Positions 28,411 to 45,263 of a DNA stretch of 64,000 nt are shown one piece after another; positions within the stretch are counted from its first letter, which is position 1; each line of letters begins with the position of its first letter. Position numbers and translations under genes: made by a program. Origin of the DNA: a virus; the IMG/VR virus record IMGVR_UViG_3300023176_005537, positions 1-64,000 of that record, one strand, 5' to 3'. Under the pieces are notes generated by a model. The model saw nothing but the letters and a program-made list of their open reading frames with translations, was not told where the DNA came from and made no database searches.

Positions 28411-28824
28411 ATGGACAAAAAACTAACCGATTGGATCGAATCAAAAGGGATCACCCTGATCCCTGACAAGATCGATCTTTTCGATCGCTACACCAAAACA
28501 ATCAAATACAACAAGCACAACAAGAAAGAGAATCAATTGTTCTCTATCCTGCATGAGTGCGGTCACTTCCTGCTACAACAAAACATATATACATACGCGA
28601 AGAAGTACAAGGCGCAAGTAGATTTCAATACAAGGTTGTTTGATAAGCCTTTTCGTCCTTACAAGATCTCTGTTTTGAAAGAAGAATACGATGCTTGGGA
28701 CAGAGGCTTGGCTTTGGCAAAAAGGTTAAAGATTGACATTGACGAAGAAAAGTATTACAATTACGCTTCAAAGTTTTTGTACACATACTGCAAATGGGTG
28801 GTATCAAGGAGGAGAAATGTGTAA
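28411..28824 (+). CDS. zincin-like metallopeptidase
   Basis: HECGH plus downstream EEYDAW. Confidence 0.7.
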   Translation: MDKKLTDWIESKGITLIPDKIDLFDRYTKTIKYNKHNKKENQLFSILHECGHFLLQQNIYTYAKKYKAQVDFNTRLFDKPFRPYKISVLKEEYDAWDRGLALAKRLKIDIDEEKYYNYASKFLYTYCKWVVSRRRNV

Positions 28825-29026
28825 GATCGCAGAAAAGATCGCAAAAAAGATCACAAGGAAAAGATCAGTTTGCAACGGAGTGATCCCAGAGATCGAAAAA
28901 GAGATCAAAGAAGTTATTGAATTACTTCTTTGCCATTCAGAAAATCATCCGGAAACGTTTGGTTCATTGATGGTTGGGAGTAAAGAAGTGGCAATTCAAA
29001 AGCTAGAACAGTGGATGGAAAAATGA
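28817..29026 (+). CDS. hypothetical protein
   Basis: GGAGGAG RBS. Confidence 0.65.
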   Translation: MCKIAEKIAKKITRKRSVCNGVIPEIEKEIKEVIELLLCHSENHPETFGSLMVGSKEVAIQKLEQWMEK

Positions 29027-29083
29027 GAACTGGAGAGAACGACAAGTGGAAAGTAATCATTTCAACCGCTTGTGAAATAGTTC

Positions 29084-29113
29084 TTGACTGATCCTGCCAG
29101 ATCGTGCAATAAT
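29084..29113 (+). promoter_or_regulatory. GATC-containing sigma70 promoter class (copies at 31644, 32346, 34942; variants at 33404, 34216, about 38187, about 39443)
   Basis: TTGACTGATCnnnnnAGATCGTGCAATAAT repeated in front of separate cassettes. Confidence 0.8.
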
Positions 29114-29154
29114 GATTTCACACTGGCAAAAGCCCAAACAAAAAGGAGAACACA

Positions 29155-29343
29155 ATGTCTTGGGTTATACTTTTCTTTCTTTCTACTCTTTTCGTTTCAC
29201 AAATAATGAGAACAGTGTTAAGAACAGGAGACACTGTTATCGGTGCTTGGATTGCAATTTCAGCAATCGCAGCGTTCTGGATCGGGGTAGCAGTTGTTAT
29301 GTATCAGATCTTTATCTTCTTGGTTAATTTAATTGGAGCCTAA
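29155..29343 (+). CDS. small membrane protein
   Basis: Two hydrophobic segments; AAGGAG RBS. Confidence 0.7.
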   Translation: MSWVILFFLSTLFVSQIMRTVLRTGDTVIGAWIAISAIAAFWIGVAVVMYQIFIFLVNLIGA

Positions 29344-29344
29344 C

Positions 29345-29539
29345 ATGAAGAGCTTATTCTACAAAGGACAATATTGGAAAGTCGGAGACCTTGTTAAAGG
29401 CAGAGATGGTCGTTGTGGTTATATTGTGGGGTTAAATGTTCAAGAATATATTGATGTATATGTTAGTGCTGACGTTATTTGGCAAGACGGAGAGAAATTA
29501 TCCTTCTCTTTGAATTACTTGGAGTTGGTCAATGAATAA
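29345..29539 (+). CDS. small KOW/SH3-like protein
   Basis: YKG..WKVGDLV..A.V.WQ.GE...LNYLEL; paralogue of the next gene. Confidence 0.7.
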   Translation: MKSLFYKGQYWKVGDLVKGRDGRCGYIVGLNVQEYIDVYVSADVIWQDGEKLSFSLNYLELVNE

Positions 29540-29762
29540 CATGAGATATAAAGGAAAAACTTGGAAAGTAGGGGACTTCGTTTATAATAGAGCCGAAATC
29601 AGATTCTATCCTCGTCGCTTTGGTCACATTTTGAAGCTGGTCAAGGAAGAGTGCCAAGATGCTTATTCAGTTGGCCTTTTCAGGTATGAAGCCAATGTTG
29701 TTTGGCAAAACGGAGAGATTCATAGAATTAGCTTGGATTACTTGGAGTTGATCAATGAATGA
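29532..29762 (+). CDS. small KOW/SH3-like protein
   Basis: YKG..WKVGDFV..ANVVWQNGE..LDYLEL. Confidence 0.7.
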   Translation: MNNMRYKGKTWKVGDFVYNRAEIRFYPRRFGHILKLVKEECQDAYSVGLFRYEANVVWQNGEIHRISLDYLELINE

Positions 29763-29958
29763 TTTCAAAGTCGGAGATCTTGTCGTGGTCTCTCCAAACG
29801 CAACCCGTTGGTGTTCACTCAAGCCCCATCTGGGAATAGTGGTTAAGTGCCGTGGCAGTCTTATTGGGACTTGTGTTGTTGTTCTACAGGATGGGCGAAA
29901 AAGATTATTTAAAACATCGCAATTGCAAAAACTACTTGACAAACCAGAAAAATCCTGA
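29755..29958 (+). CDS. small KOW/SH3-like protein
   Basis: FKVGDLV..GIVV. Confidence 0.65.
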   Translation: MNDFKVGDLVVVSPNATRWCSLKPHLGIVVKCRGSLIGTCVVVLQDGRKRLFKTSQLQKLLDKPEKS

Positions 29959-30004
29959 TACCATTTAGAACAAGCTGGAAACACAAAACACAGGAGAATA
30001 TAAC

Positions 30005-30247
30005 ATGAAAACAGCTTACATCGCCTACTCAGACTGGGATGATGGTGTAATCATCTCGTCAAAAGTCTTTCAAACCGAACACGAGGCTAAAGCAGAACTC
30101 GAAATGATTCTCTGCGAAATTGCCGAAGCTAACGAGATCACATATACACCGCCCGAAAACCCTCAAAGGGATGAGTTTGAAGAAATCCTGCTCGATTGTG
30201 CTGGAACCTTCCACTTCGGAGTCCATAAGGTAAGACTTGTCTGGTAA
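30005..30247 (+). CDS. hypothetical protein
   Basis: AGGAG RBS. Confidence 0.7.
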   Translation: MKTAYIAYSDWDDGVIISSKVFQTEHEAKAELEMILCEIAEANEITYTPPENPQRDEFEEILLDCAGTFHFGVHKVRLVW

Positions 30248-30278
30248 CTAAAGAACACAAATACAGGAGAACAAAGAC

Positions 30279-31199
30279 ATGATGGGCTATGCTTGCATCA
30301 ACACCGATCTCTCAAGCCGATCCAAAAAAGATCGCATCACAACCAACCGCACAATGATCAAAAGAACCTTTGAACAGAAAGGTGTTGAGTATGCCTCTGA
30401 ATTGGCTGTGCAAAACTGTGCAGACCTTCTTCCCATCCTCCAGTGGAACGAGAAGAACGGCATTCGCTTCTTCCGCCTTTCATCGGAGTTCTTCCCGTGG
30501 GCATCCGAATATGATCTCAAAGATCTCCCGCACTACGAGCAGATCAAGAAATCACTTGCACAAGCGGGTGCATACGCAAAAAAACACAATCATCGCTTGA
30601 CTTGTCATCCCGGACATTTCAACAAGCTGGCCTCTCCAAAACCCAAGGTTGTCGAGAATACAATCAGGGATCTGGAAATCCACGGAGAATTGTTTGATCT
30701 TCTTGGCCTTTCAAGAACCCCTTACAACAAAATCAATATTCATGTGGGCGCAACGTATGGCGACAAAGAATCTGCCTGTGCCACATTCAATTCCAACTTC
30801 AAGAAATTATCAGACGCAGTGCGCTCCCGCCTGACCGTGGAGAACGACGACAAGGCATCCCTTTATTCTACAAAGGATCTGCACGAATTGATCTGGAAAA
30901 AGATCGGCACACCAATTGTTTTTGACTACCACCACCACAAGTTCTGTACTGGTGGGCAATCAGAAGAAGAAGCCCTCAAACTGGCAGCGTCCACTTGGGG
31001 TAAGTACAAGCCCGTTGTCCATTATTCAGAGAGCAGGGCAAAAGAGCAAAACGATTCAAAGATCAAGCCACAGGCGCATTCCGACTACATTCAAGAAAAG
31101 ATCTTGACTTATGGCGTTGACGTTGATATAATGGTCGAAGCCAAAGCAAAAGAGCAGGCTTTGTTGGAATGGAGCAAAAAACATGGAACGCTGGTATAA
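30279..31199 (+). CDS. uvsE: UV damage repair endonuclease
   Basis: GYACIN, FFRLSS, HPG.F, INIHVG, ENDD, FDYHHH, HYSE, AHSD, MVEAK.KE. Confidence 0.93.
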   Translation: MMGYACINTDLSSRSKKDRITTNRTMIKRTFEQKGVEYASELAVQNCADLLPILQWNEKNGIRFFRLSSEFFPWASEYDLKDLPHYEQIKKSLAQAGAYAKKHNHRLTCHPGHFNKLASPKPKVVENTIRDLEIHGELFDLLGLSRTPYNKINIHVGATYGDKESACATFNSNFKKLSDAVRSRLTVENDDKASLYSTKDLHELIWKKIGTPIVFDYHHHKFCTGGQSEEEALKLAASTWGKYKPVVHYSESRAKEQNDSKIKPQAHSDYIQEKILTYGVDVDIMVEAKAKEQALLEWSKKHGTLV

Positions 31200-31392
31200 A
31201 GAGGGAGAAGTAGTCAGAGATTGGAAAGGAAGGGTGGGCGTGATCATCCGTATGTACGACAAGAAAGCATACGGGCAAGAGATCTTCAAAGTGATCTGGC
31301 AAGATCAAACACAAACAACAGAGACGATCAGATCGGTTTGGTCTGGGGAGCAGGAAGATGAGGACAGCAGAGATCAACAAGTGGATCAATGA
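31183..31392 (+). CDS. hypothetical protein
   Basis: Coupled ORF; KEGEVV..GVI. Confidence 0.55.
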   Translation: MERWYKEGEVVRDWKGRVGVIIRMYDKKAYGQEIFKVIWQDQTQTTETIRSVWSGEQEDEDSRDQQVDQ

Positions 31393-31606
31393 AGGCGGAT
31401 CACTCTCTCAAGATCTAACACAAGAAGAGAAAGACCACCTCACAAAGTTGGGGCGGAGTGTTGACGAACACTGGCATTCCAACGGACAGAAGTCTTATGA
31501 ATGGAACTGGTTCCACGGAATGAAGCACGGCGTGTTCAAACATTGGGATAGAGACGGAATCCTCACCTATGATGCAGAATATTACTATGGGAACAAAATC
31601 AAGTAA
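31358..31606 (+). CDS. MORN-variant repeat protein, paralogue 3 (shortest)
   Basis: Same N- and C-terminal blocks as the 26664 and 26981 genes. Confidence 0.8.
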   Translation: MRTAEINKWINEGGSLSQDLTQEEKDHLTKLGRSVDEHWHSNGQKSYEWNWFHGMKHGVFKHWDRDGILTYDAEYYYGNKIK

Positions 31607-31715
31607 TCATTTCAGTTGTTTACAAAATAGTTGAAAATAGTTCTTGACTGATCCTTCGAGATCGTGCAATAATGTTTGCACATTGGCAGAAACACACCCC
31701 AAGGAGTACAAGAAA

Positions 31716-32099
31716 ATGGAATTGGTTGAACACGTTAAAGAATTGCTTCCCACCTGTGAGGAAGGCGCATACGGTGATCTGGAAGTAGTCGCATCCTGTC
31801 TTCAAGGTCTGCTTATCGCGGAAAACGCGGAGTTGGCAGACACCCATCTGGAGAGAATCTTCGATGCGATCAAAGAAGATCGGATCGTTGAGGATCACTG
31901 GGTGGAGGTATGGCTAGAGAACCGGGAGCCAGAAAGACGAGAGCTTCCGGGTCTCGTAGCCTTCGCAAGTTGGCTGCACACTTGGGATCTGATCGAGGAC
32001 GAGGAGTGGTATCACCACTTCGACAAATGGTGCGATGAGGAGTTTGGACAGTGCTATGATGGCGCACTATTCGAGTACGACAAGGAGTTGGGAGCATGA
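31716..32099 (+). CDS. acidic hypothetical protein
   Basis: AAGGAG RBS after promoter at 31644. Confidence 0.7.
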   Translation: MELVEHVKELLPTCEEGAYGDLEVVASCLQGLLIAENAELADTHLERIFDAIKEDRIVEDHWVEVWLENREPERRELPGLVAFASWLHTWDLIEDEEWYHHFDKWCDEEFGQCYDGALFEYDKELGA

Positions 32100-32332
32100 A
32101 AAAGCTGAACGCATTTCTCGAAGAATGGGGCGATCTCGTCTTTGAATACGGGATCAAATACAGTGACGACGACTTTCCGTTGGATGATCGCTTTGAGCCA
32201 ATGGCGCGAGCGATCGAAAGACAAGGCGTGTGGTGGCACATGCCCAAAGGCATTCAAAACTATGTGGTCATGTCCGACAGGGCAATGATGATCATGGAAA
32301 AAGCCTTTCAAAATCTGGCACTTACAGAATAA
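32096..32332 (+). CDS. hypothetical protein
   Basis: ATGA coupling. Confidence 0.7.
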   Translation: MKKLNAFLEEWGDLVFEYGIKYSDDDFPLDDRFEPMARAIERQGVWWHMPKGIQNYVVMSDRAMMIMEKAFQNLALTE

Positions 32333-32413
32333 TCGAAAAAAGATCTTGACTGATCTCACCAGATCGTGCAATAATGATTGTCGTTGGTGAGAACAAACAC
32401 AGAGGAGGCTGAT

Positions 32414-33325
32414 ATGCCGCACATGACTTGGAAGTCGGAATTGGAAAAAAGAGTCGCAATCATCGAGGAGTTTCTCCGTTTTCACAATGAAAACAAGGAG
32501 TTCAACAAAGAGGCTTCGTATGGGCTACACAGGTTCCTCAAAGAAGAGGAGACTGTCTCGGTTCTTCGCGATCTGGCGGCTATCGCACCAGCAGATCACA
32601 GGATCAATGTTGCGACATACTCGGAGGACGTGTGTCCACCCCTGCACAAACGCTACATGGAGATCGGATATACAATGCGCAACGCTATTGATCAGACTTC
32701 AGGGAACCTTCAGGATTATCTGGAAGACTACAAGAAGCTGATCGCGTCGGAGGTGACATTCAGAGACAAAACACATTCTGAAGAAATGCTCGCCCTCTGG
32801 GAGCTTTTCAAAAGATCAGCCCGTGAAGGTTCCCTGAAGCCCGGAGGTGATCAATTCAAGAACATGGGGGCGGAACCAACAAAGCAGCAGCATGATGAGC
32901 TTTTCTACTACGATGGCGACAAGGTATGCCTCAAGTACAACAGTTGGGCTAACGACCAGTTTAAAACGAAGTACCAGTGGATGAGGTGTCTTTCAAAGCC
33001 AAAATACAATCAGGGTCAGACCGTTTATTTCAAGACCAACGCCCCTGTTCGCAAGGGTCGCGGCTACTGGTACAGCAGCATTACTGACGTAGAAAAAGCC
33101 GAGAGAAAGCTGGCAGAAGAGAAGGCGGCTGGTACGCTGACAAACAAACCTGCCCTTGTTATCGAGGTTCCGGAGATTGTTCCGGAGGGTGATTACCAAG
33201 GCAACCGTCTTTACAAGGTGATGCTTCCGGGGTATCCTGCTCCTGTTTGCCTCCCAGAGCGGTGCTTCAAGAAGTCTATTTCTACCAGAGGTAGGAAGAA
33301 AAACAAAAGCAATCTTCCTGCATAA
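32414..33325 (+). CDS. hypothetical protein, paralogue family A
   Basis: Shares LWxLFxRSAREGS..NMGAEPTK..KPKY..NKPALVIEVPEIVPEGDY.GNRLYK with the 33473 gene. Confidence 0.8.
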   Translation: MPHMTWKSELEKRVAIIEEFLRFHNENKEFNKEASYGLHRFLKEEETVSVLRDLAAIAPADHRINVATYSEDVCPPLHKRYMEIGYTMRNAIDQTSGNLQDYLEDYKKLIASEVTFRDKTHSEEMLALWELFKRSAREGSLKPGGDQFKNMGAEPTKQQHDELFYYDGDKVCLKYNSWANDQFKTKYQWMRCLSKPKYNQGQTVYFKTNAPVRKGRGYWYSSITDVEKAERKLAEEKAAGTLTNKPALVIEVPEIVPEGDYQGNRLYKVMLPGYPAPVCLPERCFKKSISTRGRKKNKSNLPA

Positions 33326-33456
33326 AAAAAGATTCACCAGCAAGATCAAGGGGTTGGAAACCAGAGTGCGTCAACCCCCTGATTTTGTTGAAGATCTTTT
33401 TCCTTGATCGATCCTACCAGATCGGCTATAATGGTCGTCGTTGGTGAGAACACAAA
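33323..33456 (+). repeat. about 135-bp intergenic direct repeat (copy 2 at about 34136-34268)
   Basis: Near-identical block containing an inverted IHF-like pair, a GATC promoter and a leader. Confidence 0.9.
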
Positions 33457-33472
33457 TGACAAGGAGAAAAGA

Positions 33473-34138
33473 ATGTTCAGCGCAGAATACTGTAAAGCGT
33501 CGGAACGAGATCTACGAAGACTCATTGAGTCAGAGGAGGCTTTCAAAAATAAAACACACTGGGATCAAATAATCCCCCTGTGGGATCTTTTCCGTAGATC
33601 CGCACGGGAGGGTTCGATCGTACCCAGAGGCGGCTTTGCAGCCCCCAACCTCTTCGAGAACATGGGGGCGGAGCCAACAAAAGAGCAGTATGATAGGCTT
33701 TTTTACTGTGATGGAGGGCGGCTTTTCCTCCAGTATAACTCCTGCGTCACCGACTCATTCACCGACAGGTACGGGTGGATGAAGCAGCTTTCAAAGCCAA
33801 AATACAAACAGGGGCAGACGATCTACTTCAAGGCAAACGCCCCTGTTCGCAAGGGTAAGCGCGGTATCCTCCAGAAGTTGTCGCGCTGGGGCAACTTCAA
33901 CGAAGTAGAGAAAGCCGAGGAGAAGCTAGCCAAAGAGAAGGAGGCTGGCACGTTGGCAAACAAGCCCGCCCTTGTCATCGAGGTTCCGGAGATCGTCCCG
34001 GAGGGCGACTATAAAGGGAACCGTCTCTATAAGCTTGAGATTTCGGGGTATCCTGCTCCGGTGATCCTTCCAGAGAGGTGCTTCAAGAAGTCTAACACGG
34101 TCAGACGTAGGAAGAAGAAAAGCAACAAACCTTCATAA
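33473..34138 (+). CDS. hypothetical protein, paralogue family A
   Basis: High similarity to the C-terminal two-thirds of the 32414 gene. Confidence 0.8.
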   Translation: MFSAEYCKASERDLRRLIESEEAFKNKTHWDQIIPLWDLFRRSAREGSIVPRGGFAAPNLFENMGAEPTKEQYDRLFYCDGGRLFLQYNSCVTDSFTDRYGWMKQLSKPKYKQGQTIYFKANAPVRKGKRGILQKLSRWGNFNEVEKAEEKLAKEKEAGTLANKPALVIEVPEIVPEGDYKGNRLYKLEISGYPAPVILPERCFKKSNTVRRRKKKSNKPS

Positions 34139-34281
34139 AAAAGATTCATCAGCAAGATCAAGGAGTTGGAAACCAGAGTGCGTCAACGCTTTGATTTTGT
34201 TGAAGATCTTTTTTGTTGACCGATCCTGCCAGATCGGCTATAATGGTCGTCGTTGGTGAGAACACAAACGAGGAGGATGCG

Positions 34282-34908
34282 ATGAGCGTCAAAAAGAAGA
34301 TCAAAGAGATGAAGGATCGCGGTGGCTACAAGGCTCTCACAGAGTGGGAGCAGCGGTTCTGTGATTCTGTTCTTTCCTCCAAGTATGACTCCCTGACCTA
34401 TCGACAGGAGCCGTACTTTGAGAGGATCATGAAGAAAACCTCCCCAGAGCGTATGAATGGCCTCGCCCTCTGGCAGAGGAGCGGCGGCTACACTGAAGAA
34501 AGAAAGGCGATCGCAAAGATCGTCGCCCCTTATTACCTGCGAGGCAAGAAGTATTTCTATGACCTCGCCAAGCAAGCCCTCGAAGGGAAAGAGCTTTCCT
34601 TTGGTCAATACAAGGCTATGTGCGAGAACAAGTACGCACGAGCCATTGTAGAGGCTCACAGAGCCAAGCCAAAATACAAAGAAGGCGATCAAGTCTTCGT
34701 CACCACCAACATAAAGGGGGATTCCTCTACACAGAAGAGGGAATACTTCAGCAAAATCAGAGGTTTGCGAGGAACGCCTCTTTTTATTCTCGAAGTCAAC
34801 GCGGAGACACCCCTATCCCCCGCGAAGGGCGCGAAACAATACCGCGTTCTTCCGATCGGAGGGGAGCCAGTTTTGATTGAGGAGCGAAACCTCAAAAAGC
34901 GGAAGTAA
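34282..34908 (+). CDS. hypothetical protein, divergent member of family A
   Basis: KPKYKEG..P.FILEV..Y.V...G..PV..EER..KK. Confidence 0.75.
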   Translation: MSVKKKIKEMKDRGGYKALTEWEQRFCDSVLSSKYDSLTYRQEPYFERIMKKTSPERMNGLALWQRSGGYTEERKAIAKIVAPYYLRGKKYFYDLAKQALEGKELSFGQYKAMCENKYARAIVEAHRAKPKYKEGDQVFVTTNIKGDSSTQKREYFSKIRGLRGTPLFILEVNAETPLSPAKGAKQYRVLPIGGEPVLIEERNLKKRK

Positions 34909-35042
34909 ACCAAGAACTTACAAAATAGTTGAAAAAAGTTCTTGACTGATCCTGTCAGATCGTGCAATAATGTTTGCACATCGTCGGGAGTGAGATTGTC
35001 TCCTCCCATTTTTTTCAAGCCATTCTTTCTAGGAGAAACATC

Positions 35043-36092
35043 ATGGCTATTGATTTCAAAACCTTCAATTCCGTCGTCCCCCATGTTGTCGCAGACCTCA
35101 AACCCGTCCTGATCCGTGGTAGACACGGGGTCGGAAAGTCCGAGACCGTCTATCAGATCGCAGAAAAGATCGGCCTGCCCGTGGTGGAGCGTCGTGCTTC
35201 TCAAATGACCGAGGGCGATCTGATCGGATTGCCCGTCGTGGACGGAGAAGCTACAAGCTGGAACCCTCCCGACTGGTTCAAGACCGCTTGCAGCGAGCCT
35301 GTGGTCTTGTTTCTTGACGAGATTGATCGAGCCACCCTCGAAGTCCGTCAAGGGATCTTCGAGCTTACCGATAGCCGCAAGCTCAACGGTCACGCTCTCC
35401 ACGAGCAGACCGTGATCTTCGGTGCTATCAACGGTGGGGAGCATGGCTCCCAATACCAAGTCGGCGAGTTTGACCCTGCCGAATTGGATCGCTGGACGGT
35501 CTTCGATGTTGAGCCAAGCGTCGAGGACTGGCTCACTTGGGCAGCGGATCACGTTGACCAGAAGATCTGGGACTTCGTGAACCAGAACCGCCAACACCTC
35601 GAACACAAGGAAGACTTTGAGCCAAACAAAGTGTACCCTTCCCGACGTTCGTGGAAGCGGCTGTCCGATTGTCTCGTCAAAGGCGACCTCTTGAACGAGG
35701 CCTCGCCTGTTCTGTTCCAGTTGTCCGTAGCCTACGTCGGCTTCGAGGCTGGCGTGGCTCTCAACGACTTCATCGACCAGTACAAGAGCGTCGTTACCAT
35801 CGAGCAACTGCTCGACAAGGGCGATGTGAAGGCAACCAAAGACTTCAGCATCAACGACCACTGCGCGATGATCGAGAAGATCGACGCTGCAAAGGTGTTT
35901 GACTCCATCCTTCCTGCGGGAAGAATGAAGAACCTCGCCAAGTACTTTGTGACGCTTCCCTCCGAGGTGGCGGTCAAACTGTGGGCTCAGATGGGCTCCT
36001 CCGGTCGTCCGGTGGAGAACAGCACCGCGTTCCACAAAGAGCCGGGTGTGTCCGAGGCTTTCGTCAAAATGTACGCTTCTCAAAACAAATAA
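35043..36092 (+). CDS. MoxR-like AAA+ ATPase
   Basis: GRHGVGKS, DLIGLP, LFLDEIDRA, DPA.LDR, PSRRSW. Confidence 0.9.
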   Translation: MAIDFKTFNSVVPHVVADLKPVLIRGRHGVGKSETVYQIAEKIGLPVVERRASQMTEGDLIGLPVVDGEATSWNPPDWFKTACSEPVVLFLDEIDRATLEVRQGIFELTDSRKLNGHALHEQTVIFGAINGGEHGSQYQVGEFDPAELDRWTVFDVEPSVEDWLTWAADHVDQKIWDFVNQNRQHLEHKEDFEPNKVYPSRRSWKRLSDCLVKGDLLNEASPVLFQLSVAYVGFEAGVALNDFIDQYKSVVTIEQLLDKGDVKATKDFSINDHCAMIEKIDAAKVFDSILPAGRMKNLAKYFVTLPSEVAVKLWAQMGSSGRPVENSTAFHKEPGVSEAFVKMYASQNK

Positions 36093-36177
36093 TCCTTTTT
36101 CCGCTTGACAAACGATCGGGGTTTTTGCTATAATGTGTGGACATTGGCAAAACCCCTTTCGTTTTTGGAGGATCGCT

Positions 36178-37341
36178 ATGTTCGATCTAAATGATCACAC
36201 CGCCCGTGTTCTCGTGGGTGAACCGTTCTTTGCTGCCCTGTCCCGCAGGGTGGAGAAGAGGATCAACAAGGACATCCCGACCGCTGGCGTTCGCGTCAAC
36301 GAGCGCGGGTTCTACGAGATGGTCTACAATCCGGATTTCTTCGAGACTCTCACAGACCGAGAGATCGGTGGTGTCCTCAAGCACGAGTTTTACCACCTGA
36401 TCTTCCGGCATTGCGAAGAGCGTCTCCCCGAAGGGGGCATGTCGAAGATTTGGAACATTGCCACCGATCTGGCTATCAACAGCCACCTGATCGGTGAACT
36501 GCCGGAGAATGGCTGCATTCCGGGTCAGGGGCATTTCAAGGACTATCCTGTCGGCCTCTCTTCCGAGCAGTATCTCAAAATGCTGCAAGATGATCCACGC
36601 TCCCAGTCCAGTGGTGGCGGGGAAGATGGAGAAGAAGGAGACGGTCTTCCCGATAACATGGACGATCACTCCGGCTGGGGTGGTGACAAGGACAGCGAAG
36701 ACAAAAAGGAGCAAGCCAAGCAGAGGCTCAAGGAAGCCCTCAAAGGGGCTGCTGAGGAGGCTGCGAAGCGTGACTGGGGGTCTGTGTCCAATTCCGTGCG
36801 AGAGACCGTTATGGAGGCTCTCAAGAGCCGTCTGGACTGGCGCAAGGTTCTGCGTTACTTCGTAAAGTGTTCACAGAACGCTCACAAGAAAAGCACGATC
36901 AAAAGGATCAACAAGCGGTTTCCCTACATCCACGCCGGACGTAGAGCAGACCGCGTTGCCAACGTCGCGATCTCGATTGATCAGTCCGGATCGGTGTCTG
37001 AAGAGATGCTAGCCGCGTTCTACGCGGAGTTGGACAAGCTGTCCACACTGGCAACGTTCACTGTGATCCCCTTCGACACGAGGGTAGAAGAGGAGCATGT
37101 CTTCATCTGGAAGAAGGGAATGACCCACAAGAAGGAGCGTTACCTTCACGGTGGGACTTGTTTCGACGCTCCCACCGCGTTTGTGAACGATCGTGACTTC
37201 GACGGTCACATCATCCTGACGGACATGGAGGCTCCTAAGCCTCGGCGTTCAAAGTGTCAGAGAATGTGGCTCACAACCCAAGACTGCAAAGACAGAGTGT
37301 ACTGGTCAACCCACGAGAGAATCGTCGCTATCGACGATTGA
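36178..37341 (+). CDS. metallopeptidase-like plus VWA domain protein (DUF2201-type)
   Basis: HEFYH, WNIA.D.AIN, IDQSGS MIDAS, GGT.F, LTD. Confidence 0.88.
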   Translation: MFDLNDHTARVLVGEPFFAALSRRVEKRINKDIPTAGVRVNERGFYEMVYNPDFFETLTDREIGGVLKHEFYHLIFRHCEERLPEGGMSKIWNIATDLAINSHLIGELPENGCIPGQGHFKDYPVGLSSEQYLKMLQDDPRSQSSGGGEDGEEGDGLPDNMDDHSGWGGDKDSEDKKEQAKQRLKEALKGAAEEAAKRDWGSVSNSVRETVMEALKSRLDWRKVLRYFVKCSQNAHKKSTIKRINKRFPYIHAGRRADRVANVAISIDQSGSVSEEMLAAFYAELDKLSTLATFTVIPFDTRVEEEHVFIWKKGMTHKKERYLHGGTCFDAPTAFVNDRDFDGHIILTDMEAPKPRRSKCQRMWLTTQDCKDRVYWSTHERIVAIDD

Positions 37342-37355
37342 GAGGAAAGAAAAGA

Positions 37356-38109: not shown

Positions 38110-38262
38110 AATATTTTCTTCAATGAGATCAGGGGGTTGAGAGAGCATCGGCCTCAACTCCTTGGTTTCATTGAGGATCTTTTTTGTTGATCGATCCTGA
38201 TCTTTTTGCTATAATAGAGGACACAAGGGCAATGAAGCCCCCAAGAAGGTGGAGACAACGCC

Positions 38263-39141
38263 ATGTCTAGCAAGATCACAAACATCATCATCGAGGACAT
38301 CATCAACCTGATCGAAGAAAGCAAGGAGTTGCCGTGGGAAAAGCCGTGGAACGCGGCAGCATCCAGCCCGCAGAACATGGTATGGCAGAAGCCGTACCGT
38401 GGGATCAACCGCTTCATGTGTTCGCTCACGGCGACCGTGCGAGGCTACAACAGCCCCTTCTGGCTCACCTTTGGGCAGGTCAAGAAGGCCGGAGGCAAGA
38501 TCAAGAAAGGAGAAAAGGCGACAAAGATCGTCAAATGGGGGGCGATCGAGATCAAAGACAAGCAGACGGGAGAGGTGAAAGATAAAATCTGGAAGCCTTT
38601 CAAGTACTTCAAGATCTTCAACGTCGATCAGTGCGAGGGGATCGAGGTTCCAGAACAGGAGATCGAAACCCTCGAATGGAAGCCGCTTGAGCGGTGCGAC
38701 ATGATCATCGAAGGATACGCAGACATCCCCAGCATCGGGGAAGGAGGAGACAGGGCATGCTACATTCCAGCGATGGATGTGATCAAAATGCCCAACAAAA
38801 CGACGTTCAAGAGCGTGGAAGGGTTCTATGCGACCCTGTTCCACGAGCTTGCACACTCAACTGGTGCGAAGCAAAGACTCAACAGGGTCGGCGTGACCGA
38901 TCCGATCCAGTTTGGATCGCACCAATACAGCAAAGAGGAGTTGATCGCGGAGTTTTGCTCCGCCCTGCTTTGCGCTCACGCAGGAATCGAACGCGAAACC
39001 CGAAAGAACTCGGCTGCTTACGTCAAAGGATGGTGTAAGTATCTGAGAGAAAAAGGGAAAGAGATCTTCTCTGCTGCTTCACAGGCAGAGAAGGCTTTTG
39101 ATTACATTGTTTCTCAACAAAAACAGGAGGTTACAGAATGA
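38263..39141 (+). CDS. ardC: ArdC-family antirestriction / ssDNA-binding protein
   Basis: LPWEKPW, YRGIN, WLTF.Q..GG.IKKGEK, FN.DQ, HELAH.TG..RL.R, EEL.AE. Confidence 0.9.
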   Translation: MSSKITNIIIEDIINLIEESKELPWEKPWNAAASSPQNMVWQKPYRGINRFMCSLTATVRGYNSPFWLTFGQVKKAGGKIKKGEKATKIVKWGAIEIKDKQTGEVKDKIWKPFKYFKIFNVDQCEGIEVPEQEIETLEWKPLERCDMIIEGYADIPSIGEGGDRACYIPAMDVIKMPNKTTFKSVEGFYATLFHELAHSTGAKQRLNRVGVTDPIQFGSHQYSKEELIAEFCSALLCAHAGIERETRKNSAAYVKGWCKYLREKGKEIFSAASQAEKAFDYIVSQQKQEVTE

Positions 39142-39365: not shown

Positions 39366-39493
39366 AAGTTTTTTCCTTAGCAAGATCAGGGGGTTGAGTC
39401 AACCAAAGGCTCATCCCCTTGATTTTGTTCAGGATCTTTTATTTGATCGATCCTGATCTTTTTGCTATAATAGGTGCAGAAAGGAGGGAGAGC

Positions 39494-39694: not shown

Positions 39695-39935
39695 AAAAGG
39701 AGATTGGGTCAGGTATAGCAGCCCTCTCATCAGGTTTAGTTTCCAGTTCATGAAAGAGACTCCGCTGTTTTCTCCAACAGACTACAAGGATGCCGAGAAG
39801 CGACTGCATGGGTTCGTGGTCGGTGAGGAGGGTGATCAATTGCTTGTCCTTCACGCTGGGCAGGACAGCCCCGTCCTGCGTGACAGGCGAGACCTCAAAA
39901 AGATCGAGGATAACAAAACAAACCTTTGTCTTTGA
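39681..39935 (+). CDS. hypothetical protein
   Basis: GAGG RBS; KKGDWV. Confidence 0.6.
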   Translation: MTKIKKGDWVRYSSPLIRFSFQFMKETPLFSPTDYKDAEKRLHGFVVGEEGDQLLVLHAGQDSPVLRDRRDLKKIEDNKTNLCL

Positions 39936-39945
39936 TTTAAAAGGA

Positions 39946-40479
39946 GGAATCACCTTCGAGTGAGAAATCACCTGCGGGGGCAAGAAATCACCTGTGGGTG
40001 GGCAGGAGAAACCACCTAACACCCCCACAGATACGAGAGGAGAAATCACCTGCGCCTTGCCAGAAATCACCTACGGGGGCGCGTGTTTGGAAATCATTGA
40101 AAAGTGTGGGGCTCTTAACCCCAGTAATGGCGCGGGTTTGCGGGGTTTTCCACAGGTTTTTCCACAGGAAATCCACAGGTAATGACAAGTTCGCAAATCC
40201 CCACCAATAGGGGATTAGAGACCTGCTGGAGAAATCACCTGTACCTGTGGGAAATCACACAGGAAATCACCTGTGTCACGATATGACACATATGCATGGT
40301 ATAATAAAAGGACGAGGCAGAGGAGAAATCACCCACACACGAGAAAACAGCGTTTTTCGCAAACACCGAGAAATAGGGGGGTTTGATTAGCACCCCCCCT
40401 AAAGGAGACTCGAAAATGTCCAAAGAAATCAAGCAAGTACAGGCACAGATTGGCGGCACACGCCCACAGGAAATCACCC
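39946..40479. repeat. GAAATCAC(C/A) iteron-like repeat field with DnaA-box-like sites; candidate origin or terminus-associated region
   Basis: Copies at 39964, 39984, 40042, 40063, 40231, 40251, 40263, 40325, 40470 (variants 39946, 40008); TTTTCCACA at 40146 and 40158. Confidence 0.7.
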
Positions 40480-40717
40480 CTGCACGAGCGCAAACCCCGC
40501 CCCTGTGGGCGGCAGCGATTGTCCTGCACCCGCAACGCAGGCAAACCGCGCTTGACTGGACACGGGTCATGGCGCACCCACGAGGGAACACGCCAGATCC
40601 CCAATTCCCGCAAACCCCGAGAAACACGGGGGTTTGATTTACCCCCCTCCTAAAGGCCACTCGATTTCATTTTGAGATCAAGGGGTTGGAGATCCCTGGA
40701 ATCCTTTTCTAGAAACG

Positions 40718-40806
40718 TGTGTCACGATCTGACACAGATCGATCGTATAATAGAGGGCGAGGGCAAGAAAGCCCCAGAAACCACACACCGATCAAAGGAG
40801 ATCGCC
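40718..40806 (+). promoter_or_regulatory. repeated palindrome-type promoter/leader module (copies at 40272, 41042, 42067, 42703, 43291, 43816)
   Basis: TGTGWCA-CGATC-TGWCACA, 9 bp, TATAAT, GGGC-N6-GCCC hairpin, GATC-flanked SD. Confidence 0.85.
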
Positions 40807-41046
40807 ATGAGGAACGAGCTTTGGGAGCAGCACGAGGCTTTCCTGTTACGCAATGGGATCAAGAGCTTAGGAGACGAGGAGGCTTTCCAGTGGGCGCACA
40901 ACGATCTACAATGGGCGATCTCCGACCTTCGCGTCTATCTCCGCAAGAACCCCTGCGACCGTCTCGCGATTGTGATCGAGGAGCGCAAGGGAGACCTCGC
41001 GAGGCTCGAAGAGGTCTGGTTTCTCGCTTCTGGGAAGCACCTGTGA
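40807..41046 (+). CDS. hypothetical early protein
   Basis: Follows promoter module; AAGGAG RBS. Confidence 0.7.
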   Translation: MRNELWEQHEAFLLRNGIKSLGDEEAFQWAHNDLQWAISDLRVYLRKNPCDRLAIVIEERKGDLARLEEVWFLASGKHL

Positions 41047-41130
41047 CACGATCTGACACAGGTCGATCGTATAATGTAGCACGAGGGCAAGAAAGCCCCA
41101 CCAACCCAAAACGATCAAAGGAGATCGCTC

Positions 41131-41403
41131 ATGAAAGTCTTCACCGTCTGGTTCGCTCAGTCCCCCGATCGCACCTTCCGCCTCTTCGATCGCTCCCCCG
41201 AAGGTGCGCCTCTCTGGTTCGTCACTCGCTCCCATGCCGTCGAATGGTGCAGGGACGAGATCTTCGGGGATCTCGATCGTCTTCCTGTCCCCTATTCCAT
41301 CGAGATCAGAGAGATCCACGTCGACGATCTGCCCCTTGAATCCCCGATCACATGGGACGTGGAAGCAGCCTGCGAAGGCTGGCACGAATCCAGTTGGGTC
41401 TGA
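41131..41403 (+). CDS. hypothetical early protein
   Basis: Follows promoter module at 41042. Confidence 0.7.
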   Translation: MKVFTVWFAQSPDRTFRLFDRSPEGAPLWFVTRSHAVEWCRDEIFGDLDRLPVPYSIEIREIHVDDLPLESPITWDVEAACEGWHESSWV

Positions 41404-41519
41404 TTCCCCTTCAAAATCAACTGTTTACAAAATAGTTGAAAAAAATTGTCAGAAAGATCCACCCCGATCGTATAATAGGGGGCAAGGGCAATTCAGCCCC
41501 AGAAAATGGAGAACACGCC

Positions 41520-42023
41520 ATGAGAGTCACATTCCGCACCTACAACACCAACCTTGACGGCTTCGCAATCTCCCACTGGCTCGACGATTTGCACCAATCC
41601 GAGGCTTGCTACTGGAACATCCTTCCCCGCTGGTGCTGGGAAACCAGCACCTTCCACACCGCCACCAGCGGCTACACCTACCGCCTCATGTCCAAGCACG
41701 ACCACTGGCACATGTGGGTCTACGAAGGCGCAGACAAGGGCTTCATGGCTCAGGCGTTCCTCCCAGACTTCGGTGGCTGGGAGGTCGTAGAGGTCGAAGG
41801 CTCCTTCGGCCTGTTTGTCGGGTCTTCCGCTCTGCTTCATTACCGCGAGGTGAAGGAGGGCAGCGGCTTCTACGCAATCTCTCACACCCTCACAGACCCA
41901 GAGGCGTGGATCAAGCGCAACTGGGGGTGGATCAAGGGCGAACCTGTCCCTGTTCCCCTCCATGAGGCTCTCGCAGAGCCTGTCGTCCGTCAATGGGATC
42001 GTGACCTGTACGGGGCGCGCTGA
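41520..42023 (+). CDS. hypothetical early protein (Trp/His-rich)
   Basis: GATCGTATAAT and GGGC hairpin upstream; GGAG RBS. Confidence 0.7.
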   Translation: MRVTFRTYNTNLDGFAISHWLDDLHQSEACYWNILPRWCWETSTFHTATSGYTYRLMSKHDHWHMWVYEGADKGFMAQAFLPDFGGWEVVEVEGSFGLFVGSSALLHYREVKEGSGFYAISHTLTDPEAWIKRNWGWIKGEPVPVPLHEALAEPVVRQWDRDLYGAR

Positions 42024-42144
42024 GAAATCACCTGCACATGTGCGAAATCGCACAGGAAATCACATGTGTGACGCGATCTGTCACAGATCGATCGTATAAT
42101 AGAGGACACAGGGCAACAACGCCCACCAACTGAGGAGAGATCAC

Positions 42145-42435
42145 ATGCGAAAGATCACGCAAGAAGCCTTCACCGCTTGGAAGACCGGAAAATCATTCAA
42201 CAAATCCAACACCCGCGTCACCCCTGACGGATCGGTCTTCCTCCACGGAAACCAGATCGTCCGCGTCACCCCTGACGCCGTTCTTGTCTCTGACGGGGGT
42301 TTCGGCTGGTCGAAGACCACCAGAGAGCGTCTCAGCCCGTGGATCACGTTCTCCCAGAAAAACTGGGAGCCCCTGATGGATGGAAACCCTTACAAATCAG
42401 GTACTTGGGTGGCTCTCACCCGCAAGACTTGGTAG
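42145..42435 (+). CDS. hypothetical early protein
   Basis: Follows module at 42067; LHGNQI..TT.ERL. Confidence 0.75.
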   Translation: MRKITQEAFTAWKTGKSFNKSNTRVTPDGSVFLHGNQIVRVTPDAVLVSDGGFGWSKTTRERLSPWITFSQKNWEPLMDGNPYKSGTWVALTRKTW

Positions 42436-42491
42436 CCTCAGCCCCTAACCCTTTGATTTCCTTTCATTTTTTCCCTTCAGGAGAAAAACCT

Positions 42492-42695
42492 ATGCATTTT
42501 CAATACTTTGTCGCTGCTGTCTGCCAGACCCTCGAAAGCATGGATCACCCGATCGAGAAGCTTCTTTCCCGCAGGGAGGCGGAAATGCTCCTCTGCGATT
42601 GCTTCGAGGCTGGCTGGACACCAGACCAAACGATCGACAAGGTTCTCTCTGATGCCCGCGGGGACTGGCTTTTCAACGATTTCTGGAGGGATTGA
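42492..42695 (+). CDS. hypothetical early protein
   Basis: CAGGAG RBS after a pyrimidine-rich leader. Confidence 0.65.
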   Translation: MHFQYFVAAVCQTLESMDHPIEKLLSRREAEMLLCDCFEAGWTPDQTIDKVLSDARGDWLFNDFWRD

Positions 42696-42787
42696 TCCAA
42701 CGTGTGTCACGATCTGACACAGATCGATCGTATAATAGGGGACACAGGGGGCAACGAAGCCCCACACAACGATCCAAGGAGATCACT

Positions 42788-43111
42788 ATGCAGTACCGCG
42801 AATGGCGAAAAAACAAAGCAAAATCAGACACTTCCTTCGTTTCGGCGTGGAGAGATTCCAGGGGTCTCCCGAAGCTCTCTGATGCCGAGAACAGCGAGCG
42901 TTTCGACAGCTACCTCTGGCTGATGCGCGAGCTAGACAAGATCGTGCTTCGCAAGATGCGCGCCGAAGAGCGCGAGGAGCGCGGGCTTTCCGGCTCCCTG
43001 TCCTTTGAGGCCGAGCGTCACGGGGAAAAGGTCGATTTCGACGACATCTCCCTCGACTATGCCGAAGAGGTCGACGTTGACGGCCTCACAGACGAAGACG
43101 TTGCTTTCTGA
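42788..43111 (+). CDS. hypothetical early protein
   Basis: Follows module at 42703. Confidence 0.7.
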   Translation: MQYREWRKNKAKSDTSFVSAWRDSRGLPKLSDAENSERFDSYLWLMRELDKIVLRKMRAEEREERGLSGSLSFEAERHGEKVDFDDISLDYAEEVDVDGLTDEDVAF

Positions 43112-43119
43112 CCCTCACC

Positions 43120-43139
43120 ACCGCCCTTTTGGGCGGTTT
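43120..43139 (+). terminator. GC hairpin, terminator-like (similar one at about 44327-44349)
   Basis: ACCGCCC-TTTT-GGGCGGT-TT. Confidence 0.55.
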
Positions 43140-43189
43140 CCCTTCTAACCCTTTGATTTTCTTTTCCTTTTCCTCCAAAGAGGTGCTAA

Positions 43190-43288
43190 ATGTCTGAAAC
43201 AATTAAGCTTTTCGCTGGTGTCCTGATTGCTTCCCTCTTCTACTTCGCCCCCGCCCTGATTTTCTTCTTTTTGCAGCTTCCCTCATGA
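43190..43288 (+). CDS. 32-aa single-TM peptide (not in ORF track)
   Basis: GAGGT RBS; MSETIKLFAGVLIASLFYFAPALIFFFLQLPS. Confidence 0.55.
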   Translation: MSETIKLFAGVLIASLFYFAPALIFFFLQLPS

Positions 43289-43375
43289 CCTGTGACACGA
43301 TCTGTCACACGTTGATCGTATAATAGAGGGCAAGGGGGCAACAACGCCCCACACAATGATCGAAGGAGATCAAGC

Positions 43376-43807
43376 ATGAGAATCGACAGCTACGCAACCA
43401 AAGACCTTTTCCTCTTTGAAATCGCAGACATGGAGCGCAAGATCGACGCACACGTCGCAATGCGCGACCACGTCGACGCTTCCGGCAAACTCTCCGAGGA
43501 GATGGACGCTCTCTTCGCGTCCATCCTCACGCCCCTCCGCGAGGGGGTTGCAGCCCGCAAGGCTGCCATTGCTGCGCTCACAACGGCGGATCATCTCCGC
43601 CTAGCGGAGCAGGAAGAGGAGCGCATGCGCTTCGTGGAGACCTCCACAGAGGAGGAGGAGGCGATCAAAGCGGAGATCTCCTTCTACCGCTGCAAGCTCC
43701 TGCGTGAAGGGGGTTTTCGCATCCCTCTGGCCTCCAGCCCCGAAGCCGCGGGGGCTATGATGGAACGCATGGGCGAAGCGCACGACCTGCGACGTTTGCG
43801 CAATTAA
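43376..43807 (+). CDS. hypothetical helical early protein
   Basis: Follows module at 43291. Confidence 0.7.
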   Translation: MRIDSYATKDLFLFEIADMERKIDAHVAMRDHVDASGKLSEEMDALFASILTPLREGVAARKAAIAALTTADHLRLAEQEEERMRFVETSTEEEEAIKAEISFYRCKLLREGGFRIPLASSPEAAGAMMERMGEAHDLRRLRN

Positions 43808-43898
43808 TGCGGACATGTGTCACGATCTGACACTGTTGGATCGTATAATAGGGGAGAAGGGGCAACGAAGCCCCCAACACTGATCGAAGGAGATCAAA

Positions 43899-44309
43899 AT
43901 GGCAAACGCTAACTACCTGAAATATACCGTGATTCCCGGTCTCGCTGAATCCCTTCGCGAAGCAGACGAGCTTCAGGGTATCCTCCGCACCTTCCCCGAC
44001 CTCAGCCCCCTCAACAAGGGGCTGATCGAGGGTCGTTTGATCACCGTCAACGAGGCGGTGGAAGACTACTCTGCCGAAATGCGCGCTGAATACGAGGTTT
44101 CGGAGCAGTTGAACGCTGTGCGCGAATACCGCGCCGGCTTCGGGTCTTACGTCCACCCCACTATCGAAAGGTTCGTGGAACAGGAGATCACAGCCCTTGA
44201 GGCTGCTCTAGCCCTCGAAGAGGCTCGTAGCGACGGGGAACGCCTCACCTTCGCAAGCTTCGAGGATTTCGAGGCTTTCGTCCGGTCTACCTTCAACGTG
44301 GTGGAATGA
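43899..44309 (+). CDS. hypothetical acidic early protein
   Basis: Follows module at 43816. Confidence 0.7.
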   Translation: MANANYLKYTVIPGLAESLREADELQGILRTFPDLSPLNKGLIEGRLITVNEAVEDYSAEMRAEYEVSEQLNAVREYRAGFGSYVHPTIERFVEQEITALEAALALEEARSDGERLTFASFEDFEAFVRSTFNVVE

Positions 44310-44391
44310 CCGCCAACCCCGGAGCAGCCGCCCTTCGGGGCGGTTGTTTCCCAACCCTTTGATTTTCTTCACCTTTTCAGGAGCAACAATC

Positions 44392-44637
44392 ATGGCTATC
44401 TCCCTGTCTTCATTGGCAAATCTCTTCTTCTTCGTTTCCCTCGCTGCCGTGGGCTTCTACGGCGTGATCATGTTCGTTCTGTGCGATCAATACGTCCGAG
44501 CGATCATGGGCTCCCCAGAAGTCGACGGCTACGAGGTGATCGAAGCCACCCCTTCGATCCTCCTCTTGTTCTCGGTGTCTCTGACCGGTTCGATCGTTTG
44601 GTTCGCTGTCGGCGGGTTTTGCCAGACCTTCGCCTGA
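44392..44637 (+). CDS. 2-TM membrane protein
   Basis: CAGGAG RBS; two hydrophobic helices. Confidence 0.65.
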   Translation: MAISLSSLANLFFFVSLAAVGFYGVIMFVLCDQYVRAIMGSPEVDGYEVIEATPSILLLFSVSLTGSIVWFAVGGFCQTFA

Positions 44638-44688
44638 CCCCTAACCCTAACCCCTTCTTTTCTTTCACTTTTTTTCAGGAGTTTCAAA

Positions 44689-45036
44689 ATGAAAAAGGCT
44701 TTCACTGTAACTATCGAGAATGGCTCAAGAATTGGCAAGGCTGTCTTCGAGGCTGCGAGCTTCGCGGAGGTTCGCCGGCAGTTCGCCCTGATGCAGCGTA
44801 ACGACGCGAATCTGAAAGGGTTTTGCATCGTCAAAATACAGGAGAACGAAAAGCCCCAGCGGGTCGGGCGTTTCGAACGCCCCGTTCTCAAGAGCGCGAT
44901 GGGCAGGGCGCTTGACGCTGCCAGCAATTCTAAGTCCTTGGGATCAAAGCGAAATCCGTTTCGCGATCCCAAACAAGCCGCGAAGATTCGCCGCGAGCAA
45001 AACGCGATCTTGAAAAAGGAGAACAAAAACAAATAG
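44689..45036 (+). CDS. basic hypothetical protein
   Basis: CAGGAG RBS. Confidence 0.7.
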   Translation: MKKAFTVTIENGSRIGKAVFEAASFAEVRRQFALMQRNDANLKGFCIVKIQENEKPQRVGRFERPVLKSAMGRALDAASNSKSLGSKRNPFRDPKQAAKIRREQNAILKKENKNK

Positions 45037-45263
45037 TTAGAGGGGGGGCTCCCCCTCCCCCCCTATTCCTCGCCCTTCCGGAAAGTAAAATCCCCTGAGA
45101 GATCAGGGGGTTACAGGCGCGGCCTAGTCCCAACGACACACACAGAAAAATTCCACAAATTCGAACCCTTTCCAATGACTTCCCAAAAATCCAAAGCTTT
45201 CCAAAAGAAAGCCAAAGAGAAAAAATCCCCAAAAAAAAATTCCAAAATTTGAACCTTTTCAAC

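Follow-up and report, generated by a model that had tools for sequence, protein, structure and literature searches.

GATC sites under selection saturate the early gene module of a phage and are purged from the homologous module of many relatives

Clusters of GATC sites are known at the replication origin oriC and the dnaA promoter, where SeqA acts, at the pac site of phage P1 and at single Dam-sensitive promoters. Readers of modified bases are known as well, and include TF1 of phage SPO1 on hydroxymethyluracil (hmU) DNA, Alc of phage T4 on cytosine-containing DNA (C-DNA) and GcrA on promoters with N6-methyladenine (m6A) in GANTC. Davison and Brunel reportedly described in 1979 a restriction-site avoidance in T5-like phages that was confined to first-step-transfer (FST) DNA. 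Only sites located in FST DNA expose such a phage to restriction (PMC10644984). GATC itself is normally under-represented in phages whose hosts possess GATC-directed enzymes (PMC6286503). In cyanobacteria, the GATC-containing palindrome HIP1 (GCGATCGC) is over-represented and has been linked to methylases of GATC or CGATCG (PMC4390886). Here we analysed a window of 64,000 nucleotides, the first 64 kb of the 156,945-bp IMG/VR virus record IMGVR_UViG_3300023176_005537 (a linear fragment of 86% CheckV completeness), and describe within it an early phage gene module, hereafter the block, in which GATC is strongly enriched:

28411..45100, + strand: GATC-enriched early module of ~35 mostly small genes in short transcription units

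Comparison with the described systems showed partial likeness to each. T5 FST DNA is also a terminal or early block of ~8–9% of the genome with pre-early anti-defence genes, and in relatives of the present phage the loss of GATC or other palindromes is likewise confined to the homologous block, as seen for GATC in relatives G002, G004 and G009 (observed/expected ratios of 0.10–0.29 in the block against 0.87–1.31 elsewhere) and for other palindromes in G005. The sign is reversed here, however, with one palindrome enriched 3.6-fold, and two-step entry is a feature of T5. The SeqA clusters at Escherichia coli oriC and dnaA likewise hold close GATC sites, frequently spaced by about one turn of the helix, and a cooperative binder that reads their post-replicative methylation state silences the region; neighbouring sites within the ~31 bp typical of SeqA were found here as 21 pairs at exactly 10 bp and 97 coding pairs at most 31 nt apart (62±6.8 under random placement within genes). 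Those clusters span only ~250 bp and control the initiation of chromosomal replication, whereas here 17 kb of early genes are involved in a phage without a SeqA homologue. Dam-sensitive promoters such as IS10 pIN, phage P1 cre and phage Mu mom carry GATC within or beside the -35 and -10 boxes and their output can follow methylation state, but each of these is an isolated promoter holding one to three sites, in contrast to more than 14 promoters of three classes with phased pairs, together with saturated genes. HIP1 shares with the block the over-representation by selection of a palindrome containing GATC and an association with methyltransferases, yet it is an 8-mer found across whole chromosomes, while the block shows bare GATC with free flanks in one phage module and no over-representation of the extended palindrome (GCGATCGC or CGATCG; the latter was observed 30 times against 31 expected). 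Finally, modified-base readers are proteins that read a DNA modification and change transcription, and the SPO1 host-takeover module also consists of small genes each with a strong promoter; there the reader and the modification are known, whereas both are only proposed here. None of these systems shows early phage genes saturated with GATC across a whole module and the sign reversed in relatives, and no account of a phage with block-wide GATC enrichment came up in our literature search.

Between positions 28411 and 45150 the block contained 235 GATC, or 14 per kb, corresponding to 3.6 times the mononucleotide, 2.4 times the first-order Markov and 1.47 times the maximal-order Markov expectation; GATC in the remaining genome occurred at ~1.5 times expectation. 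The left edge was soft, with a shoulder of ~8 GATC per kb at 20–28 kb. An earlier note, made by reading the letters of this DNA, had called attention to the enrichment, and its hand counts (6 GATC in 28434–28497, 7 in 28825–28910 and 13 in 41050–41350) were exact, as was its impression that the nuclease-methylase cassette at 8463–10114 has an ordinary density (6 GATC in 1.65 kb). The note allowed that the signal might dissolve under codon- and dinucleotide-preserving nulls or be shared by other tetramers, and neither was found. The 35 + strand genes of the block, called by hand from open reading frames (ORFs) and Shine-Dalgarno (SD) boxes without a gene finder, contained 167 GATC in comparison to 98.0±6.3 after synonymous-codon shuffling and 135.4±4.3 after shuffling that preserved protein, codon usage and every dinucleotide. 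GATC was the strongest outlier among the 256 tetramers under both nulls (z of 10.1 and 7.1, the runners-up reaching 6.1 and 3.9), no other 4-bp palindrome was enriched in the coding DNA under either, and GGCC, TTAA, AGCT and GTAC were depleted in the block genes in the shuffle test. One third of the TCGA enrichment in the block was due to overlap with GATC, and this enrichment was set aside as uninformative.

Codon context bore out the suggestion, also made in the earlier note, that selection acts synonymously through G-ending codons before isoleucine ATC. G preceded ATC in 59% of cases and ATT in 35%, while accounting for 28% of third bases overall, and C followed GAT in 47% of cases and GAC in 18%, while accounting for 20% of first bases. 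In total, 167 of 330 synonymously possible GATC positions (51%) were filled in the block in comparison to 24% in the rest of the genome. Non-coding DNA of the block was denser still, at 22.8 against 12.1 GATC per kb in coding DNA, and held 67 sites where dinucleotide shuffles gave 17.0±3.5, although six of the 67 fall in 31200–31357, which is possibly coding, and the non-coding sites are not independent because the promoter copies are paralogues. Flanks of GATC were free, with the exception of GGATCC, which was nearly absent genome-wide (one occurrence against ~20 expected). The whole genome additionally lacked CACGTG, CAGCTG, CTCGAG, GAGCTC, GTGCAC and several 6-bp palindromes composed only of G and C, a pattern suggesting that 6-bp restriction sites beyond the protection of Dam methylation are avoided throughout the genome.

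Sites within genes showed no 5' bias but were clustered, with 48 coding pairs at most 15 nt apart where placing sites at random inside the genes gave 27.5±4.7. They were also conserved. Metagenome contigs provided strains at 99%, 93%, 92% and 85% nucleotide identity, all of which carried 12–13 GATC per kb, and two of them were compared site by site with the expectation from frame-matched tetramers:

Strain contig L150, 93% identity: 140 of 158 GATC kept (118.9 expected), 14 gained
Strain contig L148, 85% identity: 46 of 66 GATC kept (34.4 expected), 17 gained

Losses in both strains were thus about offset by gains, and segments of the L150 block without a homologue in this phage still had 9–11 GATC per kb. 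Taken together, the codon-context bias, the top rank among tetramers and the retention in diverged strains beyond frame-matched controls show that GATC in the block is under positive and purifying selection acting on the DNA itself, in agreement with the positive selection that the earlier note had proposed.

The family to which this phage belongs was surveyed through the genes shared by its members, which are only the following three, other block genes differing between lineages:

34282..37341, + strand: family-conserved core of an unknown 208-aa protein, an AAA_5 (MoxR-like) ATPase and a DUF2201 metallopeptidase/VWA protein

The AAA_5 ATPase gene retrieved more than 500 loci from metagenomes in addition to 71 from IMG/VR; these loci, outside close strains, were 48–74% identical and came from phages of 180–193 kb. 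GroEL lies ~9 kb upstream of the shared trio. In six fully fetched relatives the homologous block measured 12–19 kb and was mildly elevated in GC, and the observed/expected ratios of GATC were as follows:

G000 (this phage): block 3.65, rest 1.54
G002: block 0.10, rest 1.03
G004: block 0.13, rest 0.87
G009: block 0.29, rest 1.31
G001: block 0.50, rest 0.98
G003: block 0.59, rest 1.19
G005: block 1.75, rest 1.31

The G005 block (~123.8–143 kb of its record, loci L125–L126) was purged of eight other 4-bp palindromes, with ratios of 0.13 for AATT, 0.06 for ACGT, 0.11 for AGCT, 0.27 for CATG, 0.12 for CCGG, 0.18 for CTAG, 0 for GGCC and 0.08 for TTAA, in comparison to 0.21–1.44 for the same eight in the rest of that genome, where only GGCC was also low. 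Relative to its own genome, the block of the present phage was depleted of CTAG, GGCC, TTAA and CCGG.

The orthologous AAA and VWA gene pair (2.2 kb) allowed a comparison of 149 loci, in which GATC was bimodal, being either absent or enriched. About 45 of the 149 loci had no GATC where ~8 sites were expected, and 26 had a ratio above 2, up to 3.84. In this phage the core genes at 34282–37341 carry 36 GATC, and many orthologues carry zero. Against synonymous shuffles, 61 of 134 distinct loci were depleted (z < -2), and several independent lineages were enriched, namely L173 (z of 5.1), the clade of this phage (3.2–4.1), L212 (3.4) and G005 (3.0). Well-supported branches of the AAA tree (FastTree, midpoint root, some long branches) indicated at least five origins of the GATC-rich state and at least 12 of the purged state, and even near-identical AAA proteins can differ in GATC state. 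The module is therefore the family's hot spot of selection on short palindromes, the sign of which varies by lineage with the methylase genes, and purging of the block in relatives ties the GATC signal to the fate of first-exposed DNA. The hypervariable nature of the early module across the family and the purging of GATC or other palindromes from the block of relatives both go beyond the earlier note.

Two adenine methyltransferase genes were identified in this phage, as the earlier note had assumed; the first is overlapped at its start by the 3' end of a nuclease-like gene:

8463..9128, + strand: PD-(D/E)XK restriction-endonuclease-like protein
9125..10114, + strand: D12-class, Dam-family N6-adenine DNA methyltransferase (TIGR00571, PF02086)
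18631..19101, + strand: T1-type Dam, a second adenine methyltransferase (PF05869, 117 bits against a gathering cut-off of 28.1)

The D12 methylase scored 187.7 bits against TIGR00571 (dam; cut-off 114.85) and 138.8 bits against PF02086 (cut-off 22) but failed the E. coli-type Dam equivalog NF008152 (97.7 bits, cut-off 441). Its best PDB match was M.DpnIIA/DpnM (2dpm, 1.5e-32), E. coli Dam being weaker (5e-21), and in the alignment the equivalents of the DNA-contact residues K9 and R124 were conserved while those of N120 and R137 were changed, a pattern that points to GATC specificity without proving it. The T1-type Dam is 65% identical to Staphylococcus and Lactococcus phage methylases. We infer from these relationships that both enzymes are GATC-specific; no C5 or N6_N4 methylase was present in the phage.

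The nuclease-like protein and the D12 methylase probably form a type II restriction-modification unit, as judged from nuclease motifs, modelled fold likeness and an overlapping arrangement that is conserved with the D12 methylase. Residues D112, E121-x-K123, D129 and E131-K132 were invariant across 31 homologues, and homologues P0003 and P0005 similarly overlap a PF02086 gene lying downstream. The structural model reached a pLDDT of 88.5 with an alignment (40 from the single sequence), and its nearest folds were EcoO109I (Z of 7.4, rmsd 4.4, 175 residues aligned), PspGI, EcoRII-C, FokI and HindIII, all middling at Z below 8. Foldseek against PDB gave no match at E<=0.001, a word-index homologue search returned only the protein itself, and Pfam and NCBIfam, including the Pfam DpnII family of GATC endonucleases, matched neither the nuclease nor its 30 homologues.

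Presence of a T1-type Dam followed the GATC state among about a dozen records, seven of the genomes without it being complete or near-complete. This phage, G007, G014 and G015 have the gene and all four have GATC ratios of at least 1.7, while G001, G002, G003, G004, G006 and G009 lack it and all have ratios of 0.85 or less. The exception is G005, which is GATC-rich (2.49) without a T1-type Dam but possesses an N6_N4 methylase. The GATC-rich state thus goes with phage adenine methylases, although this is a correlation among few and partly related lineages and not proof.

Every non-coding GATC of the block was located in repeated promoter, terminator or ribosome-binding-site modules, and 838 bp of module-less spacers, including an iteron-like region, contained none. 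A consensus scan identified 14 sigma-70-type promoters on the + strand, each agreeing at 10 or more of 12 positions and thus close to the E. coli consensus. The repeated modules fell into the following groups:

29084..29113, 31644–31673, 32346–32375 and 34942–34971, + strand: class I promoter, TTGACT-GATC-N6-GATC-G-TG-C-AATAAT
33404..33432 and 34216–34244, + strand: class II promoter, TTGAyC-GATC-N6-GATC-GGC-TATAAT
38187–38215 and 39443–39471, + strand: class II variant, TTGATCGATCCTGATC-N7-TATAAT
40715..40782, 41039–41106, 42064–42131, 42700–42767, 43288–43355 and 43813–43880, + strand: class III unit
40269 and 41440: degenerate class III copies
40790..40803, 41113–41126, 42771–42784, 43358–43371 and 43882–43895, + strand: GATC-N6-GATC around a Shine-Dalgarno (AAGGAG) box
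39936..40415, + strand: GATC-free non-coding stretch of 480 bp with ~10 iteron-like GAAATCACCTG repeats

A GATC-flanked terminator hairpin lies upstream of each class II promoter. In class III units a 19-bp GATC-centred palindrome stands where the -35 box would lie; GATC(GATC)G-TATAAT comes next, and then a 5' hairpin (GGGGC..GCCCC). The palindrome arms covary between 40715 and 43880 (TGTGTCA..TGACACA or TGTGACA..TGTCACA), and the hairpin downstream of the -10 box is conserved as GGGGC-N5-6-GCCCC. The 10-bp pair GATC-N6-GATC occurred 21 times in the block in comparison to three times in the other 140 kb, and apart from the peak at this distance GATC spacing had no helical periodicity. Across four strains, eight distinct class I and five distinct class II copies had invariant GATC words and a variable intervening N6. 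Exact searches of IMG/VR with the class I and class III promoter patterns gave zero matches. The iteron-like stretch amid the block could be an origin or a regulator-loading site; arrays of (A)GAAATCACCTG together with CCACAGG repeats were seen at 39960–40290 and 42023–42070.

This distribution underlies the interpretation that we tentatively favour, the chance of which we rate somewhat below even: self-methylated GATC would be a selected mark on the first-acting module and would serve as a methylation-state switch. The early module of the family would be the place where GATC-directed systems bite, and relatives without a suitable methylase would have removed GATC from it. The present phage would methylate its own adenines through the Dam-family enzyme of the restriction-modification-like pair and the T1-type Dam, so that GATC would have become safe for this lineage and could then have been recruited as an epigenetic mark. 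Selection would push GATC into half of the synonymously possible positions and fix GATC-N6-GATC pairs, one helical turn apart, in the -35/-10 spacers of the repeated early promoters and around ribosome-binding sites. An infecting genome would arrive fully methylated and its early promoters would fire, whereas after replication the module would be hemimethylated or unmethylated. Early units might then be shut off by a cooperative binder of neighbouring GATC sites, such as a host SeqA-like or a phage protein, or alternatively by loss of the methyl group at the promoter itself, and the mark would separate parental from replicated DNA. We favour a switch because no non-coding site falls outside the modules of transcription units, the members of a pair are one helical turn apart and the sites are clustered.

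Several observations weigh against a switch. The specificity of both methylases is read from their family membership, and the entry of the block into the cell ahead of the rest would follow from analogy to T5. No SeqA homologue was detected in the phage record (PF03925, E<=1), and a host SeqA cannot be assumed. Switching explains the uniform enrichment within genes only loosely. G003 and G009 deplete GATC in the block despite a different D12 methylase (25–26% identical). Additionally, a second GATC-rich clade (L172, L016 and L220) is enriched block-wide without promoter-embedded pairs, which indicates that the general cause may not be promoter control.

The principal rival is a protective or self-recognition role, which fits the family pattern and the second clade and needs a density-dependent reader. 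Here dense m6A at GATC would shield the first-exposed DNA, either by itself or through a protein coat that it attracts. The threat might be host nucleases, or it might be the phage's own GATC-directed nuclease or the degradation of host DNA, and in the latter case the mark would separate self from non-self. Protection would improve with the number of marks, and the promoter pairs would be incidental. We regard this as rather unlikely. In its favour, palindrome purging targeted the block of relatives (eight palindromes in G005) and, in this phage, CTAG, GGCC, TTAA and CCGG, so that selection there concerns nucleases; block-wide enrichment recurred in the independent clade that lacks promoter pairs; T5-type phages avoid sites solely in their first-step-transfer DNA (PMC10644984); and the phage has a restriction-like nuclease beside its methylase and, within the block, the following gene:

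38263..39141, + strand: ArdC-like anti-restriction protein (ArdcN and zincin peptidase domains), 18 GATC

GATC methylation, however, guards only GATC and overlapping sites, and having zero sites would be equally protective, so that any benefit of density needs a coating factor or an m6A-sensitive nuclease. The restriction of non-coding sites to promoter, SD and terminator modules is also left unexplained by protection. A further proposal of the earlier note was titration of a host GATC reader. It is unlikely to drive the enrichment, given that selection is confined to the block and that the block raises the GATC total of the genome by only ~20%; as a whole, the interpretation in that note is partly supported.

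The promoter architecture may also be read without methylation, as an operator in which GATC-N6-GATC is bound by a dimeric phage repressor or activator of early units and coding sites are weak extras or hitch-hikers. Phased pairs that fall precisely in the spacer of the -35 and -10 boxes and recur at +25 to +40, invariant in paralogues and strains, are what such a site would look like, as is the class III palindrome centred on GATC that replaces the -35 box. We nevertheless consider an operator improbable, as specificity would have to come from two 4-bp words alone given that flanks and N6 are unconserved, and as it explains neither the 167 coding sites, which are conserved and show codon-context selection in their own right, nor the link to methylase genes across the family.

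A passive origin, by import from a GC-richer and GATC-rich donor or by upward drift once methylation had lifted avoidance, could appeal to the different composition of the block (46–57% GC against 38%) and to its highly variable gene content. This origin is largely refuted and we give it very little credence: the core genes (AAA, VWA), which are inherited vertically, are rich in GATC here and lack it in orthologues, enrichment is just as strong in the left part of the block at 39% GC and exceeds the codon and dinucleotide nulls with sites conserved among strains, elevated GC of the block is a family trait, and relaxation alone would give a ratio near 1 and not 3.6. An RNA-level signal, with GAUC in early mRNAs read by a ribonuclease or RNA-binding protein or forming hairpins that present the SD box, is equally far-fetched in our view, since, although GAUC brackets the SD in five 5' untranslated regions (a possible 4-bp stem with the SD in its loop) and sites also lie within terminator hairpins, the enriched word is a palindrome of the kind expected from the methylase families, many sites precede the transcription start, within promoter spacers, and the sign reversal among relatives parallels restriction-type palindrome purging.

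With regard to its gene content, the block is an early, promoter-dense and hypervariable module of anti-defence and host takeover, and by analogy to T5 its DNA is probably the first to act and to enter the cell. GC content was 46–57% from 30.2 kb onward and ~38% elsewhere, and GATC enrichment already started at 28.4 kb, in the part with 39% GC. The module opens with a peptidase gene whose start is rich in GATC:

28411..28824, + strand: IrrE/ImmA-like M78 peptidase, first gene of the module, 6 GATC within its first 90 nt

Most block proteins had no match in PHROGs, Pfam or NCBIfam. Contigs from other samples join across 29158–31604, 29981–30294, 43282–43812 and further intervals, so that strains differ by whole gene cassettes, and the break points fall in conserved promoter modules; together with the gene content that varies between lineages, this identifies the block as a hypervariable early module. 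Two adjoining paralogues of unknown family, 32414–33325 and 33473–34138, share segments of ~240 nt and ~200 nt at 75–78% identity and have a separate promoter and terminator module each. ORFs 31183–31392 and 31358–31606 overlap in different frames over a very GATC-dense stretch, which could reflect a frameshift, an overlap or a mis-called start.

Elsewhere the phage genome encodes Pol III alpha, DnaB, class II ribonucleotide reductase, GroEL and pentapeptide-repeat proteins. The T1-type Dam is flanked by a shortened PurA-like adenylosuccinate synthetase (336 aa) and a GMP-reductase/IMPDH-like gene (17392–20115), and ThyX lies at 10667–11383, which looks like a purine-conversion set fitting an AT-rich genome. 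A Z-genome was considered and rejected, as 17392–18402 matches canonical PurA (3e-59) well above PurZ (1e-14 to 4e-19). The sequence of the record recurs in salt-marsh, estuary and marine metagenomes, and GenBank phages gave zero near-identity matches to 30–42 kb. Homologues of the D12 methylase, AAA ATPase and Pol III alpha did not name a host: the nearest bacterial homologues of the methylase were at most 36% identical and came from scattered metagenome-assembled genomes (MAGs), the nearest cultured phages for the ATPase were ~191-kb Vibrio phages (32%), and those nearest for Pol III alpha were Bacillus and Streptomyces phages (~32%).

In summary, one early module runs opposite to the expected avoidance of short palindromes, GATC in particular (PMC6286503), and does so under measurable selection, while the purge that would be expected is seen in the homologous modules of sister lineages. 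The result is a natural contrast, replicated many-fold across ~150 orthologous loci, in which the rich state was gained at least five times and the purged state at least 12 times, and it bears on which part of a large phage genome meets defence first, on whether the "orphan" Dam enzymes of phages have roles beyond protection, and on whether methylation state times early genes. It is possible, although doubtful, that in tailed phages generally the word of their own or the host's methylase becomes a density-dependent epigenetic label on the first-acting module, which flips between saturated and purged with gain or loss of the methylase, and that a putative reader of neighbouring methylated or hemimethylated GATC sites sets early-gene timing or self-recognition. 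If true, phage gene control, and with it the arms race between phages and defence, would have a further layer that is general and has so far not been described.

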